Below the pieces are notes generated by a model, which saw only the letters and a list, made by a program, of their open reading frames with translations, was not told the origin of the DNA and ran no database searches. From assembly GCA_964511375.1 (NCBI GenBank), contig CAZEEW010000004.1, positions 5,542-69,541 on the forward strand: a stretch of 64,000 nucleotides of DNA. Direction: 5' to 3'. This document shows positions 25,339 to 63,761 of this stretch, one piece after another. Within the stretch, counting starts at the first letter, position 1. Each line of letters opens with the position of its first letter. This DNA is from an uncultured Gammaproteobacteria bacterium (GTDB taxonomy: Bacteria; Patescibacteriota; Patescibacteriia; Magasanikbacterales; GWA2-37-8). The position numbers and the translations under genes were made by a program.

Positions 25339-25444
25339 AAATTAGACAGGTTTTAATACTTGTTTTTATACATCCATTCTAGCAGATTTTTTGAATTCTG
25401 ACTAGATATCACACACTTAAAATTCGGAAACAAAAACAGCCTTT

Positions 25445-26035
25445 AAACAAAGCTGCTTTTGAGGGATCTCGATGCGCCAGGGGCGCGCGTCGAGGGCGCC
25501 CCTCCTTGTATTTAGAAAGAACAGGTGGGGGACGAGCGACTCAGTTCGTCTCGTCCTTGGCGGGGGGTTGCGGAGCGGTCGTGCAGCAGTTGCTGGCCCT
25601 GATCAGGCCGAGCCTCTCGGCTTTCTGCCGCTGCTCTTCCGCATGCTCGCGGAAGCGGTGGTTCTCGGAGCGCAGCACTTCCGTGTGCTGGAAGTGCGAC
25701 CACACCAAGGCGGCCATGATCCGTCTCAGGTTGACCAGATACCGATCGGTCGCCCTGGAGCAGGAGTGGGCCATGCACGCGAACAGCTCGTTGACCTCGG
25801 TCAGCTCGTCGCCGAGCGCCTTCGGGACCTCGGTCCAGTCACTCTCTGGAGGCTCGCGGGGTGGGAGGATGGTGGTGGATCCGCTCAGTCGCCAGGCGTC
25901 CTTCCAGGGCTCAGAGCCCCTGCGAAGAACGTTGACGCCCACTCCCCCCACGACCAGCATCGTGTGGTACCAAAAGTTGGACTTGAACACTGCCCCTCAC
26001 TTTCCGTAAACACTCCCGTCCATCGGGATTGGAAT
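25445..26035. other. anomalous high-GC (~65%) block in a ~40% GC background; foreign-origin or chimeric segment
   Basis: Abrupt composition shift on both edges. Contains a minus-strand ORF whose codon third positions are about 88% G/C. Confidence 0.7.
25541..25990 (-). CDS. gene fragment of high-GC origin (hypothetical; weak resemblance to an IS4/IS5-type transposase C-terminus); likely truncated or non-functional
   Basis: Sampled codons have GC3 of about 15/17. Protein-like composition. A hairpin plus T-run lies downstream on the minus strand (~25428-25455). Confidence 0.35.
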   Translation of the reverse strand: MFKSNFWYHTMLVVGGVGVNVLRRGSEPWKDAWRLSGSTTILPPREPPESDWTEVPKALGDELTEVNELFACMAHSCSRATDRYLVNLRRIMAALVWSHFQHTEVLRSENHRFREHAEEQRQKAERLGLIRASNCCTTAPQPPAKDETN

Positions 26036-26103
26036 AAACTTAGCAGAAAACTGGATGTTTGTCTATGCTAGACATGTGGGGATATTTTTAAGTAGAAAAA
26101 GTA

Positions 26104-28168: not shown

Positions 28169-28618
28169 ATGGGGAAATATGTAACTATGTTCATCGGTGA
28201 ATTCACGCATAATCTGGACGAAAAAGGACGACTGGCTATCCCGGTTAAGTTTAGGCGTGACTTGACTAAAGGAGCCGTTGTAACCCGCGGCTTAGATAAT
28301 TGTCTTTTTCTTTATACTAAAGGCGAATGGGAAAAGTTGGCTGAGAAATTGGCAACTTTGCCGATTAGCCAAGCAAACAGCCGAGCCTTTGCCCGTCTTA
28401 TGCTCGCGGGAGCGATGGATGTTGATGTGGACAAACAAGGAAGAATTGTTTTACCAGAATACCTTAGACAGTTTGCTGGCTTAAATAAGAACGTTATTGT
28501 CGCTGGTTTATATAATCGGGTGGAAATATGGGATGAAGCCAAGTGGCAGAGTTACAAACAACAAACTGAAACTAACAGCAATGAGATTGCTGAAAAGATG
28601 GCTGAGCTGGGGGTGTAA
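28169..28618 (+). CDS. mraZ: transcriptional regulator MraZ
   Basis: MFIGEFTHNLDEKGRLAIPVKFR, with a second SpoVT/AbrB-like repeat. Start could instead be 28187. Confidence 0.85.
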   Translation: MGKYVTMFIGEFTHNLDEKGRLAIPVKFRRDLTKGAVVTRGLDNCLFLYTKGEWEKLAEKLATLPISQANSRAFARLMLAGAMDVDVDKQGRIVLPEYLRQFAGLNKNVIVAGLYNRVEIWDEAKWQSYKQQTETNSNEIAEKMAELGV

Positions 28619-59473: not shown

Positions 59474-59827
59474 ATGCGACACCAAAAGAAAAAAGTTACC
59501 TTGGATCGAAAAGCCGCTCCTCGACGCGCCTTACTTTCTAGCTTAGTCGAAAGCCTCGTTTTATTTGAAAAAATTAAAACTACTAAGGCGAAAGCAAAAG
59601 TTACTCGTTCCTTGGTTGAAAAATTAATCACTAAAGCTAAGAAAAATACCTTAGCGGCTCGTCGAGATATTGCCAAAGATCTTCACACTGAAAACGCTGT
59701 TAAAAAGTTGATGGAAGTTCTTGGCCCACGCTATGCTGAACGCAAGGGTGGTTTCACACGCTTAACTTTGGTTTCCAATAGCCGTAAAGGTGATGGTGCT
59801 GAAGAAGCAATTGTTGAATTCGTCTAA
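59474..59827 (+). CDS. rplQ: 50S ribosomal protein L17
   Basis: MRHQKKKVTLDRKAAPRRALL. Confidence 0.92.
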   Translation: MRHQKKKVTLDRKAAPRRALLSSLVESLVLFEKIKTTKAKAKVTRSLVEKLITKAKKNTLAARRDIAKDLHTENAVKKLMEVLGPRYAERKGGFTRLTLVSNSRKGDGAEEAIVEFV

Positions 59828-59838
59828 AGAACATATAT

Positions 59839-60204
59839 TTGAACACTATGGCTATTAAAAGACACACCGTCGTATTAGATGCCGCCGGACAAGCCCCAGG
59901 CCGTCTGGCTACTCAAATTGCGACAATTTTAATGGGTAAGAACAAACCAGATTATGTTCCACATATTGACTCTGGAGATAAGGTGGAAGTAATCAATGCA
60001 AAAGACATTGTTTTTACTGGTAAAAAGCTTGACCAGAAGGTTTATCGCCATCACACCAATCATCCTGGTGGTTTAAAAGAAACCGGAGCAAAAACTTTGT
60101 TTAAAGACAAACCAGAAGAAGTGGTTCGTTTGGCGGTAATTAAAATGTTGCCAAAGAATAAACTTCGAACTGCTCGGATGAAAAGACTTAAGATTAAGAA
60201 ATAG
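59839..60204 (+). CDS. rplM: 50S ribosomal protein L13
   Basis: ...ATILMGKNKPDYVPHIDSGDKV... Start may instead be 59848. Confidence 0.9.
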   Translation: MNTMAIKRHTVVLDAAGQAPGRLATQIATILMGKNKPDYVPHIDSGDKVEVINAKDIVFTGKKLDQKVYRHHTNHPGGLKETGAKTLFKDKPEEVVRLAVIKMLPKNKLRTARMKRLKIKK

Positions 60205-60215
60205 TAATATACACT

Positions 60216-60623
60216 ATGGCTAAAATTGTTAACAAAACCGATACTAACCGCGCAGTTGGTCGCCGCAAAAGCGCTTCTGCCCGCGTTAAGATCGACAAAG
60301 GTGCCGGTAAGATTACCGTTAATGGTAAAAACTTTACTGAATATTTTCCAGGCTTTGAATTACAGGAAACTGTCTTAGCTCCTTTAAAAGCTTTAGCTAA
60401 ATTAAAGGACTATGATATCTCTGCTAAAGTGGTTGGTGGAGGTTTAAAGGGTCAAGCTCAAGCTGTGCAATTAGGTATTGCTCGCAGCTTGGTAGTTTGG
60501 AATGAGGATTTCAAGAAAACTTTAAAAACCATTGGCTTACTTACTCGTGATGCTCGCGTAAAAGAAAGAAAGAAACCGGGTTTGAAAAAAGCTCGTCGTG
60601 CACCACAGTGGAGCAAACGTTAA
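60216..60623 (+). CDS. rpsI: 30S ribosomal protein S9
   Basis: GRRKSASARVKI...RRAPQWSKR C-terminus. Confidence 0.92.
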   Translation: MAKIVNKTDTNRAVGRRKSASARVKIDKGAGKITVNGKNFTEYFPGFELQETVLAPLKALAKLKDYDISAKVVGGGLKGQAQAVQLGIARSLVVWNEDFKKTLKTIGLLTRDARVKERKKPGLKKARRAPQWSKR

Positions 60624-60650
60624 TCCGTCTTTCATTTACAACATCTATAC

Positions 60651-60680
60651 AAAGCACCTGCAAACAGGTGCTTTTTTGTA
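60651..60680 (+). terminator. rho-independent terminator after rpsI (AGCACCTG-caaa-CAGGTGCT + T6)
   Basis: Perfect 8-bp stem. Confidence 0.65.
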
Positions 60681-60741
60681 ATTGAATAATCTCCTGTGGA
60701 TAATATTATATAACGCTCAAATATACAGTGTTTATCCAGCT

Positions 60742-60770
60742 TTGACAGAGCTGTGTGCATGATATATAAT
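60742..60770 (+). promoter_or_regulatory. consensus sigma-70 promoter (TTGACA-17-TATAAT) driving a ~130-nt unit
   Basis: Perfect hexamers and spacing read from the sequence. Confidence 0.6.
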
Positions 60771-60776
60771 CTATCC

Positions 60777-60907
60777 TTAGATATCAATTGTGAAAAAGAT
60801 TTTACAACAATGAAAGGTGTTTTTCTAATAATGAGGAAACGAGTGATGTGTTTTCATTTTCATAAAAAAAGTATTTAGACCTTGGCGTTAGGCCAGGGTC
60901 TTTTTTT
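60777..60907 (+). ncRNA. candidate small transcript (promoter-to-terminator unit) containing a 22-codon ORF (60810..60878, MKGVFLIMRKRVMCFHFHKKSI) without a Shine-Dalgarno
   Basis: Bounded by the consensus promoter at 60742-60770 and a hairpin + T7 terminator at 60878-60907. No protein-coding support. Confidence 0.3.
60878..60907 (+). terminator. rho-independent terminator (GACCTTGGC-gttag-GCCAGGGTC + T7)
   Basis: 9-bp stem with one G-U pair, followed by TTTTTTT. Confidence 0.55.
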
Positions 60908-61013
60908 GACCATTTGGTATAAAGAGGTGCAAACAATTTTGTATCCAGTGGCCAACCTCTTATTCCTAGGGCCGACTTCCGGCTCGTACGGTAATAGAGG
61001 TGGGGAGGGGAAT

Positions 61014-61202
61014 ATGTGCAACATGTGCCAGAAGACTAATGGTCAGCCGGAAAACTGGCCGACCGATCCTATGGCCTTGGCTCGTAAGGGCGGTGGTGCT
61101 GCAGGGCAGCCGTGCATGCCCTACATTCCAGGCTCTCTCGACGTTGAGCCGAAGCCCCTCGTCGAAGAGGAGCCAGACAACAAGTCGGAGCCGACCAAGT
61201 GA
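61014..61202 (+). CDS. small (62-aa) Cys-containing protein encoded in a local high-GC (~58%) patch with a strong Shine-Dalgarno
   Basis: GGTGGGGAGGGGAAT immediately precedes the ATG. Peptide MCNMCQKTNGQPENWPTDPMALARKGGGAAGQPCMPYIPGSLDVEPKPLVEEEPDNKSEPTK. GC3 is enriched relative to the host background. Confidence 0.4.
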   Translation: MCNMCQKTNGQPENWPTDPMALARKGGGAAGQPCMPYIPGSLDVEPKPLVEEEPDNKSEPTK

Positions 61203-61212
61203 TCGGCAGCCT

Positions 61213-61245
61213 AAACCAGTTTTCAGGTGGTTTTCCTGGTTTTTG
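61213..61245 (+). terminator. terminator candidate (AAACCAG-loop-CTGGTTT + TTTT), with an overlapping alternative hairpin GGTGGTTTT/AAAACCACC (61227-61254)
   Basis: Two mutually exclusive stems read directly from the sequence. Confidence 0.45.
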
Positions 61246-61438
61246 AAAACCACCCTAAAGATCTATTAATAGCAGTTTTCTTCGCTAGACAAGAATGATA
61301 AAAGTGGTAAGGTAAATATGTAATTGGTGTTTGTGAACACGGCTTTGGCCGTGTCCTTTGTTTAGATAGGGAAGTTTAGAGAACAATAACTTTATTAATT
61401 AAGGGCAGAGTAGTAATCTCTGTCGTGACAATAAATAT

Positions 61439-62269
61439 ATGGCTTTAAAAATTATGCGTTCATCATCCAAGGAATTTAAACCGCGAGTAAACATGTTGGT
61501 ATATGGACATGGTGGAGTGGGTAAAACAACTTTTGCCGCTTCCGCTCCCAAACCGATCTTTGCGGATTGTGAAGGCGGCACAAATTATTTTGGCCGGCGG
61601 GGGATAGAAGTTGATGTGGCGAGAATTTTAACCTGGAAGGACATGGAAGAGTTTTATCTTATGATCAAAGACAGTGACTACGAGACTATTATTATTGATC
61701 CAGCGAATGAAGCCTTAGAGAAGTTGATTACCCACCTTAAGGAGACCGGTAATTATACTAACAAGGCCGAAGGTTTGACCCTACAGGGTTGGGGAGTGGC
61801 GAAAGATAAAATGCGTTCATTTCTAAAAGCCATGCGTGATTTAGATAAACATATTGTTATTATTGCACATGTGGAAGAAAAGCAAGATGAAGGCCAAGTA
61901 CTTAAAAAGCGTCCTAAGCTGCAAGCTAACTTATCCCAAGAATTAATCGACATGATGGATATTGTTGCTTACATGCAAGTAATTAAAACTATTGACGGGG
62001 GAGTGAAGCGAATTTTACGGGTTCAACCAGAGAGTGATGTATACGAGGCAAAAGATCGGACTGGTGTGCTCGGAACAGTTATCGAGCCGGACTTTGAGAA
62101 GATCGTTGAAGCGGTGGTGGAGAACAAACAATTTGCTTGGACAAAGGAATTAGATGTACGAACTAGAGAAAACCTTCAGGAATTTGAAAGTGGACTAGAA
62201 ATTAAGAAGTTTGGTGATGTCGAAAAACAGGAAACGAAAAAGGCGAAAGAAAAACAAAAGGCGGACTAG
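61439..62269 (+). CDS. phage-type AAA_24 family ATPase (Sak4-like recombination/annealing-associated ATPase)
   Basis: N-terminal Walker A MLVYGHGGVGKTTFA followed by KPIFADCEGG, matching the AAA_24 pattern. ~250-aa size. Lys-rich C-terminus. Start could instead be 61454. Confidence 0.65.
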   Translation: MALKIMRSSSKEFKPRVNMLVYGHGGVGKTTFAASAPKPIFADCEGGTNYFGRRGIEVDVARILTWKDMEEFYLMIKDSDYETIIIDPANEALEKLITHLKETGNYTNKAEGLTLQGWGVAKDKMRSFLKAMRDLDKHIVIIAHVEEKQDEGQVLKKRPKLQANLSQELIDMMDIVAYMQVIKTIDGGVKRILRVQPESDVYEAKDRTGVLGTVIEPDFEKIVEAVVENKQFAWTKELDVRTRENLQEFESGLEIKKFGDVEKQETKKAKEKQKAD

Positions 62270-62324
62270 TCGTCTTGTGTTATAATTGCCTTTTAAGCCA
62301 TTTTCCGGTAAAATACTTAGGATT

Positions 62325-63761
62325 ATGGCTTATACCGTTACCCAAAATACTAGCTTTTTAACTTTAGCTTCCGTATTACAAAAGATTATCTCTTTTGTAT
62401 ATTTTACGATCATCGCTCGGATTATTGGTGTAGAGAATACCGGGCAATATTTTTTCGCAATTGCTTTTACTACAATCTTTACAGTCGTGGCGGACTTTGG
62501 TTTAGGACCAGTTTTTACCCGAGAAGTAGCCCGGGCACCCGAAAAGTCAGAGAAGTATCTAAATACCGTAATTACCACTAAGATCCTGTTTGGTTTAGCC
62601 GCATACTTGTTAGTAGTTTTGTTTGCTAATCTTTTGAATTATCCAATGCTTACCAAACATTTGATCTACCTTTCCGGTATCACCATGTTTTTTGACAATC
62701 TACACGCTGGTTATTATGCTCTGTTTCGAGCCAGGAAGAACTTAGTGTACGAAGCAATTGGTTTGGTTGGTTCGCAATTCCTAACTCTGGTTATTGGCAC
62801 GGTGGCCTTGGTATTAAAATGGTCTTTAATCTGGCTCATCATTGCGTATACTATTCCGGCCTTTTTAAATTTCATATTCTCTGGTTTATCTGCCAAAAGA
62901 GTATTTAAGTTAAAATACTATTTTTCTTTGTCTAAGGATATTTTGAAATGGCTGCTGCCCATGGCATTGCCTTTTGCGATCGCTGGTCTTTTGGGTCGAT
63001 TGTACTCTTACAGCGACTCTATTCTCATGTCCAAATTTTTATCTTCTGACGCGCTCGGTTACTGGAGTGTGCCTTACAAAATTACTTTTGCTTTCCAGTT
63101 TATCCCGATTGCCTTAGCCACCAGTGTTTATCCGGTCATGAGCGGATTGCATGTCAGTGAACCGAACAAAATTGGGGAGTTATTTCAAAAGTCTTGGCGG
63201 TATCTGTTTATGATCGTTTTTCCTTTGTCGCTGGGGGTGATCACCTTGGCGGAACCAATTATTTTGCATTTATATAAACCGACATTCGCTCCTTCCATTC
63301 CGGTTCTACAGATTCTTATGGTAAGCTTAATTTTTGGTTATCTAGGATTTATTACTACTGCTTTAATTAACGCAACAAATCATCAGAAGGTGCAAACCAG
63401 TTTAGTTGCCGTTGCTTTAGTAGTTAATTTATCCTTAAATTTTTTCTTACTGCCGCGGCACGGCATTCAAGGCGCGGCCTTGGCGGCATTGGGTAGTAAT
63501 ATCACCTTATGTCTTTTAGGTTATTACTTTTCTAGTCGTTATGTGAAGTTAAATCACGGCCTGATTACGAGTTATTTATTGAGTAGCTTATTCGCCGCAC
63601 TAATCATGGCTGTGGTAGTTTGGTATCTTTCAACAACAGTTCATTACCTTTTAATCATTCCCATTGGTGCCTTAGTTTACATTATAATGTTATTCCTCGT
63701 TAAAGGTGTAACTATGGAAATGGTAAGAGAAGCTAAAAGAAAAATATTTAAAACTACCTAA
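62325..63761 (+). CDS. Wzx-type polysaccharide/oligosaccharide flippase (MOP superfamily)
   Basis: Twelve to fourteen transmembrane helices (LQKIISFVYFTIIARIIGVENTGQYF...). Start re-picked at the ATG at 62325, after TATAAT at 62281-62286. Confidence 0.75.
   Translation: MAYTVTQNTSFLTLASVLQKIISFVYFTIIARIIGVENTGQYFFAIAFTTIFTVVADFGLGPVFTREVARAPEKSEKYLNTVITTKILFGLAAYLLVVLFANLLNYPMLTKHLIYLSGITMFFDNLHAGYYALFRARKNLVYEAIGLVGSQFLTLVIGTVALVLKWSLIWLIIAYTIPAFLNFIFSGLSAKRVFKLKYYFSLSKDILKWLLPMALPFAIAGLLGRLYSYSDSILMSKFLSSDALGYWSVPYKITFAFQFIPIALATSVYPVMSGLHVSEPNKIGELFQKSWRYLFMIVFPLSLGVITLAEPIILHLYKPTFAPSIPVLQILMVSLIFGYLGFITTALINATNHQKVQTSLVAVALVVNLSLNFFLLPRHGIQGAALAALGSNITLCLLGYYFSSRYVKLNHGLITSYLLSSLFAALIMAVVVWYLSTTVHYLLIIPIGALVYIIMLFLVKGVTMEMVREAKRKIFKTT

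Follow-up and report, generated by a model that had tools for sequence, protein, structure and literature searches.

We analysed a 64,000-nt stretch of contig CAZEEW010000004.1 (hereafter the window, with positions counted from its first base), a core chromosomal region of a bacterium of the Patescibacteria, or Candidate Phyla Radiation (CPR), and concentrated on a short GC-rich patch that lies downstream of the ribosomal-protein gene rpsI and carries an open reading frame (ORF) for a peptide of 62 amino acids (aa). The window encodes DnaJ, a MurA-type enzyme, Era, MraZ and MraW, an MraY-type enzyme, MnmA and RecR, as well as a ribosomal-protein cluster that ends rpoA-rplQ-rplM-rpsI; its best S9 matches are to a Patescibacteria metagenome-assembled genome (MAG, 80%) and to Magasanikbacteria MAGs (∼66–74%), and the 20 other ORFs that were scanned are housekeeping genes. 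In 26 relatives, the gene that comes next after rpsI encodes a flippase of the Polysacc_synt/MurJ type, across gaps of 54–2625 nt (8 of the 26 below 170 nt). In comparison with these relatives, the window has a lineage-specific segment of 1.66 kb in this place (60624–62285, plus strand; the flippase gene starts at 62286), in which the rpsI terminator is followed, in this order, by a promoter, a 22-aa ORF, a second terminator, the GC-rich patch and a gene of the AAA_24 family. We put about even weight on the patch being a small, horizontally acquired, moron-like cassette that sits next to a phage remnant in a hot spot of gene acquisition.

The patch is set apart from the surrounding DNA by its base composition. 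In a GC profile of 120-nt windows across the 64 kb (mean 0.405, standard deviation 0.060), values of at least 0.53 extend unbroken over 60940–61259, with a peak of 0.65, and a high-GC run of comparable length occurs only once elsewhere, at 25419–26042 (peak 70%). An earlier description of this DNA, made from the letters alone and here called the sequence-only reading, had reported the patch, its coordinates, its sequence and its 62-aa peptide just as we find them. The ORF lies on the plus strand at 61014–61202 (MCNMCQ...SEPTK, with the stop TGA at 61200–61202), and the GC contents of its first, second and third codon positions (GC1, GC2 and GC3) are 0.60, 0.48 and 0.71, versus 0.51, 0.36 and 0.37 in the 34 longest host ORFs; the difference in GC3 bears out the foreign composition that had been proposed. 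Two internal repeats of the patch, GGCCGAC and GGCTCGTA[C/A]GG, were rejected as a signal, their frequency being estimated to be close to chance expectation.

Upstream of the ORF, also on the plus strand, lies the Shine-Dalgarno (SD)-like sequence AGGTGGGGAGGGG (60998–61010), whose GGAGG core (61004–61008) is placed 5 nt 5′ of the ATG at 61014. When the 17 nt 5′ of each start were scored against the SD core for 60 long ORFs of the window, the match was 3 nt or shorter in 51 of them, ribosomal-protein genes included, and the genes just upstream, rpsK, rpsD, rplM and rpsI, have plain AT-rich leaders. The SD of the 62-aa ORF is thus unusual for this genome, and the sequence-only reading was right to single out the ribosome-binding site as unusually strong. 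The exception among the host genes is mraZ at 28169 (AGGTGGGG).

An open frame of 62 codons is by itself not evidence of coding here, as the same 320 nt hold four overlapping open frames of 61–107 codons on both strands. All six frames were therefore compared over 60960–61199 under a 3-periodic base-composition model. Its training set was five GC-rich ORFs, of which relatives supplied four, at the equivalent locus, and the other GC-rich patch of the window supplied one, of 149 aa. The frame of the 62-aa ORF ranks first, with +1.5 bits against −8 to −33 for the other five, while the maximum of the six frames in 2000 shuffles is −9.4 ± 4.5 bits, with a 99th percentile of 3.1. Codon periodicity and the position of the SD thus give modest evidence that the ORF is coding. 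The antisense strand carries an ORF of 95 aa, which was rejected as a real gene, having no homologues and a poorer periodicity score. In the public record (NCBI and Logan), the plus-strand ORF is annotated, on a contig of 85,982 bp, as a hypothetical protein of 106 aa (P0018) that spans 60882–61202 from a TTG start at 60882; this extension crosses AT-rich DNA and a terminator hairpin and is probably not real, and the ATG at 61014 with its SD is the more plausible start. The resulting peptide is exactly the one quoted in the sequence-only reading. It is acidic, with an isoelectric point (pI) of 4.65, is hydrophilic (grand average of hydropathy, GRAVY, −0.93), contains 16% proline, and carries one CxxC motif and a third Cys, the second knuckle being absent. 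The feature, foreign in its composition, is probably a gene, and it is an orphan.

This orphan status rests on several searches. A word search of 5.8 billion proteins matched the peptide only to itself, on the Logan contig SRR6488411_132, which is 100% identical to the window over 59619–62545 and thus comes from the same organism; its 90% cluster has one further member, namely this ORF read from the TTG as a protein of 106 aa. Scans of genomes, metagenomes and viral contigs, confirmed by tblastn, revealed no relative of the peptide, blastn against phages, tblastn against plasmids and a search of IMG/VR returned nothing, and Pfam, PHROGs, NCBIfam and PADLOC gave no family. Exact-protein look-ups for strains of the same species yielded DNA only for the same SRR6488411 contig, or nothing; the identical S9 protein is carried by a second contig. 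The sequence-only reading had regarded clear homology to the interior of a longer protein, together with absence from expression data, as the mark of a pseudogene fragment, and no homology to any longer protein was found.

In a phmmer search of 1.84 billion representatives, 16 other proteins were listed with E-values down to 4.6e-20, all long repeat proteins and mostly of the MBG type. Each of these E-values adds up as many as 20 matched stretches in one protein; when the scores were recomputed per stretch, each matched repeat reached at most 15.6 bits, most of them less than 10, and P0012, an unrelated, non-MBG repeat protein, scored like the MBG-type ones. Homology of the peptide to MBG repeats was rejected on these grounds. 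The matches are treated as a short motif resemblance, not homology: the peptide motif Y-x-P-G-x-L-x-V-x-P-x-P-L resembles a repeat boundary in MBG-domain repeat surface proteins (Pfam MBG families), but no single repeat scores above 15.6 bits and Pfam gives no model for the peptide at E ≤1.

The extent of the additional DNA is given by comparison with L082, a locus on a JGI contig that has the same Sak4 gene (91% identity at the amino acid level, 78% at the DNA level) downstream of rpsI (75% at the DNA level). Directly after the rpsI stop, L082 carries AGACCTTGGCagtatGCCGAGGTCTTTTTTTGACC (1454–1488), which is identical in 30 of 35 positions to 60877–60911 of the window (AGACCTTGGC...GGTCTTTTTTTGACC). 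This left flank is a conserved intrinsic terminator on the plus strand, with a 10-bp stem, T7 and GACC, and serves as the rpsI terminator in L082. The sequence CCAGTTTTCGGATGGTTTTGCTGGTTTTGAAAACTACCCAAAGAT (L082 1504–1550) is identical in 41 of 48 positions to the right flank of the window (61216–61262, plus strand; CCAGTTTTCNGNTGGTTTTNCTGGTTTTGAAAAC), which bears the conserved hairpin motif CCAGTTTTCAGGTGGTTTTCCTGGTTTTTGAAAACCACCCTAAAGAT; the local alignment of this flank scores 69, against a shuffle maximum of 47. At 86% over 35 nt and 85% over 47 nt, the flanks are better conserved than the neighbouring genes, with their 75–78% DNA identity, and the conserved flank motif had no match in IMG/VR. 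The two blocks are 15 nt apart in L082 (TCGGCGACGACCCGG) and 304 nt apart in the window, which places SD, ORF and stop in a clean indel. The 304-nt insert (60912–61215, plus strand) starts with an AT-rich part (∼60912–60945) and continues with the GC-rich body that holds all three, and neither the 86 loci compared nor any collection searched held a sequence homologous to it. The 15-mer of L082, with a GC content of 80%, could be a scar.

Two overlapping hairpins lie 3′ of the stop codon, a perfect 10-bp stem (GGTGGTTTTC/GAAAACCACC, 61226–61235/61245–61254) and a weak 5-bp stem followed by T5 (61223–61244). They account for the hairpin terminator with a competing stem of the sequence-only reading, and both alternative stems fall within the right flank; as the hairpin motif is present in L082 without the insert, it is a conserved flank and not a terminator of the cassette's own. 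The flanks either act as terminators or, as in mosaic phages, may have been the joints at which variable modules recombined.

In the relatives, too, GC-rich DNA is concentrated between rpsI and the flippase gene. With a GC-rich stretch defined as one at least 13 GC points above the mean of its locus, GC-rich bases make up 29% of the gap in the 26 relatives, versus 3.5% elsewhere, and such gap stretches occur in L003, L004, L006, L007, L008, L014, L015, L022 and L065. They include ORFs whose GC3 periodicity is strong, of 110 aa in L007 (plus strand; GC1/2/3 0.62/0.45/0.78), 138 aa in L006 (minus strand; 0.60/0.38/0.80), 181 and 208 aa in L014 and L015 (minus strand; 0.63/0.40/0.73), and 158 aa in L022 (minus strand; 0.54/0.34/0.63); by eye, a frame of ∼77 aa can be seen in the GC-rich stretch of L004. 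The L007 ORF has a host-type promoter and a strong SD (AGAGGAGGA). Strong SDs on foreign GC-rich ORFs are seen in the window, L007 and L004. Except for L014 and L015, which are close relatives, these ORFs show no similarity to one another, none resembles the window peptide, and they have no relative in Pfam, PHROGs or IMG/VR; no Rfam match was found in these loci.

Within the window itself, the other GC-rich patch (25419–26042) has a gene for a membrane protein on one side and one for a beta-CASP RNase on the other, with a hairpin terminator after it in an AT-rich flank, and contains, on the minus strand, the 149-aa orphan ORF mentioned above (25541–25990, GC3 0.87), for which no homologue was found in 5.8 billion proteins, phage records, IMG/VR, Pfam, NCBIfam, PHROGs or PADLOC. 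A shared origin of the two patches, suggested in the sequence-only reading, found no support: they have no blastn or tblastx similarity and differ in GC3 (0.71 vs 0.87), and the dinucleotide distance between them is non-discriminating at a length of 270 nt. Of the 9-mer CCAGTTTTC, the window has 5 copies where 0.77 would be expected, a number that none of 100 shuffles reached; these copies, at 26046, 55422, 58240 and 61050 on the minus strand and at 61216 on the plus strand, include one at the edge of the 25.4-kb patch (26046), one inside the 62-aa ORF (61050) and one at the edge of the 61-kb patch (61216). In L004, CAGTTTTCAGG is found at the edge of the GC-rich stretch (4573), and the copy at 61216 corresponds to position 1504 of L082. 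An 8-mer is enriched 3-fold in the gaps of the relatives (4 hits), which does not convincingly repeat the enrichment seen in the window, and CCAGTTTTC was rejected as a general boundary motif; the counts do not establish it as a target site.

The rest of the 1.66-kb segment shows further signs of exchange. The first rpsI terminator (60651–60674) has a CACCTG/CAGGTG stem preceded by TTTACAACA. Over 60742–60907, it is followed by a perfect sigma-70 consensus promoter (TTGACA-17-TATAAT, 60742–60770) and by the 22-aa ORF (MKGVFLIMRKRVMCFHFHKKSI, 60810–60878; 41 aa if read from the GTG at 60753), whose stop abuts the second strong terminator (60877–60901). This AT-rich unit of ∼250 nt is missing from L082, where that terminator directly follows rpsI; possible readings are a short transcript of its own, the gene of a small peptide, or a leader. 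The first terminator resembles that of L002 (4471–4492) and the second matches that of L082, and the presence of both versions in the window indicates mosaic recombination in the gap.

Downstream of the patch lies the AAA_24 gene (61439–62269, plus strand), which encodes a Sak4-like single-stranded DNA-annealing ATPase (Pfam AAA_24, 1.5e-36; phrog_124, 1.3e-50) and has a host-like GC content and no SD. Sak4-like genes are found downstream of rpsI also in L082 (2995–3825), L083 (5001–5969) and L002 (5032–6135). In L083/L086, a Patescibacteria contig that is also in IMG/VR, small ORFs come first after rpsI, then Sak4, an exonuclease gene (phrog_298) and more ORFs, which by eye have the look of HNH- and VRR-NUC-type nucleases; in L002, the closest locus in the genome collection by S9 identity, small ORFs and the AAA_24 gene come after rpsI. 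Sak4 and other phage-like genes after rpsI in relatives mark this as a site used by phage-like elements, of which the window keeps a one-gene remnant; its Sak4-like gene, standing alone, would be what is left of a prophage or have been domesticated. Small Cys-rich ORFs occur 5′ of Sak4/AAA_24 in L002 (4732–4962, 76 aa, CxxC...CxxC) and in L083 (4737–4883, 48 aa, ending CCGASVRNGRCSSCKESCE), and they are not GC-rich and dissimilar to the window peptide.

The moron-like cassette proposed above is supported by the indel between conserved flanks, the foreign composition, a strong SD, ideally spaced from the first ATG of the most periodic frame, and the presence of other, unrelated GC-rich orphan ORFs in the same gap of relatives. 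In such a scenario, ∼300 nt would have come from a GC-richer, SD-using donor and arrived by recombination at the conserved flanks, in the manner of module exchange among mosaic phage-like elements. Transcription, if any, would depend on read-through of the upstream terminator or on a weak extended −10-like element (TGGTATAAA, 60915–60923), noted by eye; a scan of 60912–61013 for sigma-70-like promoters gave no site. Translation would start from the cassette's own SD and yield a 62-residue acidic, proline-rich and probably disordered peptide, which, speculatively, might be no enzyme but a small accessory protein that binds or inhibits a partner.

Morons, as described for phages (HK97 gene 15 type), are extra prophage genes that are expressed independently, additional DNA with a GC content unlike that of their neighbours and with a promoter and a terminator of their own (PMC3594210). 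The insert resembles them in being extra DNA relative to L082 between conserved sequences, in its deviating GC content (up to 0.65 vs 0.40, with the GC3 difference given above), in being small, with a single ORF, a ribosome-binding site for it and a hairpin behind it, and in its position beside a phage-type Sak4-like gene. It differs in having no clear promoter or terminator of its own, the weak hairpin with T5 lying in the flank conserved in L082; in a surrounding 'prophage' that is down to one gene, a complete phage-like element being found at the same site in L083/L086; and in the occurrence of comparable GC-rich orphan ORFs in relatives without any phage gene. The option of a moron, already raised in the sequence-only reading, thus fits the indel, the foreign GC, the atypical ribosome-binding site and the Sak4-like neighbour; as a promoter and a terminator of its own are not demonstrated, membership is partial and we speak of a moron-like cassette.

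Two further systems invite comparison. Integron gene cassettes, including arrays of attC clusters lacking integrases (CALIN), similarly are small promoterless orphan ORFs followed by a hairpin, with different, unrelated cassettes at the same spot in different genomes. Unlike them, the gap ORFs of the relatives lie on either strand; direct reading of 61203–61330 gave no attC site (RYYYAAC...GTTRRRY), GCCTAAAC being one base off the RYYYAAC box, and thus no fit to the R″ box, with no GTTRRRY partner downstream, and no integron integrase is encoded by the neighbours (rpsI, the Sak4-like gene and the flippase gene) or the 20 other window ORFs scanned. With no attC site in the stretch read and no integrase among the ORFs scanned, an integron cassette was rejected. 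In the mosaicism of lambdoid phages, short conserved linkers flank exchangeable modules. The conserved 35-nt and 47-nt flanks likewise bracket unrelated content in two related loci, as at the module boundaries or hypervariable islets of mosaic phages; they are common to only these two loci here, so exchange is what we infer from them.

Several points weigh against the moron-like cassette. GC-rich ORFs also occur in phage-free relatives (L004 and L007) and, in the window, between housekeeping genes at 25.4–26.0 kb; with such ORFs away from phage genes, the label 'phage moron' is maybe too narrow. No outgroup polarises the change as a gain in the window or a loss in L082, though the foreign composition favours gain in the window. 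The periodicity signal is modest, covering 62 codons and lying at about the 98th percentile of shuffles (p ∼0.02), and AlphaFold2, run on the single sequence, gave a mean predicted local distance difference test (pLDDT) score of 57 and no secondary structure, so that the peptide is predicted to be disordered. With no promoter site found inside the insert and a strong terminator just upstream, expression is doubtful. Finally, no homologue that could reveal selection on the peptide was found anywhere.

The main rival, which we consider unlikely, is that the insert is a dead fragment, the 5′ end of a foreign GC-rich gene with its native ribosome-binding site, which was caught in the hot spot, had its frame cut at or near the right junction and is now functionless. 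The stop TGA at 61200–61202 is indeed only 13 nt from the right flank, these 13 nt begin with TCGGC, like the 15-nt spacer of L082, and the peptide, for all its CxxC and additional Cys, lacks a second knuckle, a predicted fold and a family; the GC-rich gap DNA of L003, which lacks a clearly periodic frame, suggests that decay occurs at this site. Against such a fragment speak the lack of homology to any longer protein, a stop codon that lies within the GC-rich DNA and not in the AT-rich flank, and an insert that just fits SD, ORF and stop, which would be improbable for a random piece. The abrupt change in composition and the absence of homologues in relatives might equally be expected of an assembly chimera, in which reads of a GC-rich organism were spliced into a Patescibacteria contig; this we find hardly credible, given that the separate Logan contig of SRR6488411 is 100% identical over 59619–62545 and spans both junctions, that both flanks align to one continuous locus in L082, and that independent MAGs, which come from other studies, have analogous GC-rich ORFs in this position. 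The precursor peptide suggested in the sequence-only reading, taken as that of a Cys-containing ribosomally synthesised and post-translationally modified peptide (RiPP), draws on size and three cysteines only. The neighbours are rpsI and the genes for the Sak4-like ATPase and the flippase, with no adjacent gene for a cyclase, radical-SAM enzyme, protease, or ABC exporter or other transporter, the scan of 20 other window ORFs showed no RiPP enzyme, and precursor families of Pfam and NCBIfam do not match; we regard this origin as very improbable.

Where intergenic DNA is AT-rich, a GC-rich island is a classic signature of non-coding RNA (ncRNA), and the patch is such an island. It might thus be a structured ncRNA or a cis-regulatory element, GC-rich through its helices and possibly encoded on the minus strand, with the ORF incidental. 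As a single sequence, the insert folds better than its shuffles, with z-scores of −2.13 on the plus and −3.55 on the minus strand, which become −2.26 and −4.53 when the flanks are included. Yet Rfam gave no match at gathering score in the 64-kb window or in 14 related loci; at E ≤10, the only match in 60600–61500 that overlaps the insert is InvR (E = 9, 60986–61059, minus strand), other weak matches falling in the flanks. ARAGORN found no transfer RNA (tRNA) or transfer-messenger RNA (tmRNA), and with Rfam and ARAGORN empty for the patch, known RNA genes (RNase P, tmRNA, the signal recognition particle RNA, 6S and others) were rejected. Besides, the insert is missing from L082, the closest locus with both flanks; the GC-rich gap stretches of the relatives share no sequence and no Rfam family and mostly show coding-like GC3 periodicity; and the best codon periodicity of the patch is in the sense frame. 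An RNA element therefore appears improbable to us: the minus-strand fold value is unexplained, yet nothing else points to an RNA gene. As a separate observation, the window (1–64000) has no tRNA gene in 64 kb of chromosome.

A broader possibility, which we put forward as quite unlikely, is that Magasanikbacteria-like Patescibacteria recurrently capture unrelated, GC-rich, SD-bearing orphan cassettes in a site-directed manner beside a conserved terminator and hairpin, after rpsI and elsewhere, as at 25.4–26.0 kb. If true, this would amount to an uncharacterised mechanism of cassette acquisition without an integron integrase, possibly marked by CCAGTTTTC at the edges of both patches.

Taken alone, the moron-like cassette is one more orphan hypothetical mini-gene of foreign origin, which is a known class. 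Its setting gives it a somewhat wider meaning: in a group of Patescibacteria with low GC and few SDs, GC-rich orphan ORFs that carry SDs and are unrelated to one another recur between rpsI and the flippase gene, as do phage-like elements, and this recurrence marks the gap as a hot spot of gene acquisition in bacteria whose genomes are very small. If expressed, such cassettes would be candidates for strain-specific accessory or phage-derived functions, which are almost unknown in this lineage.

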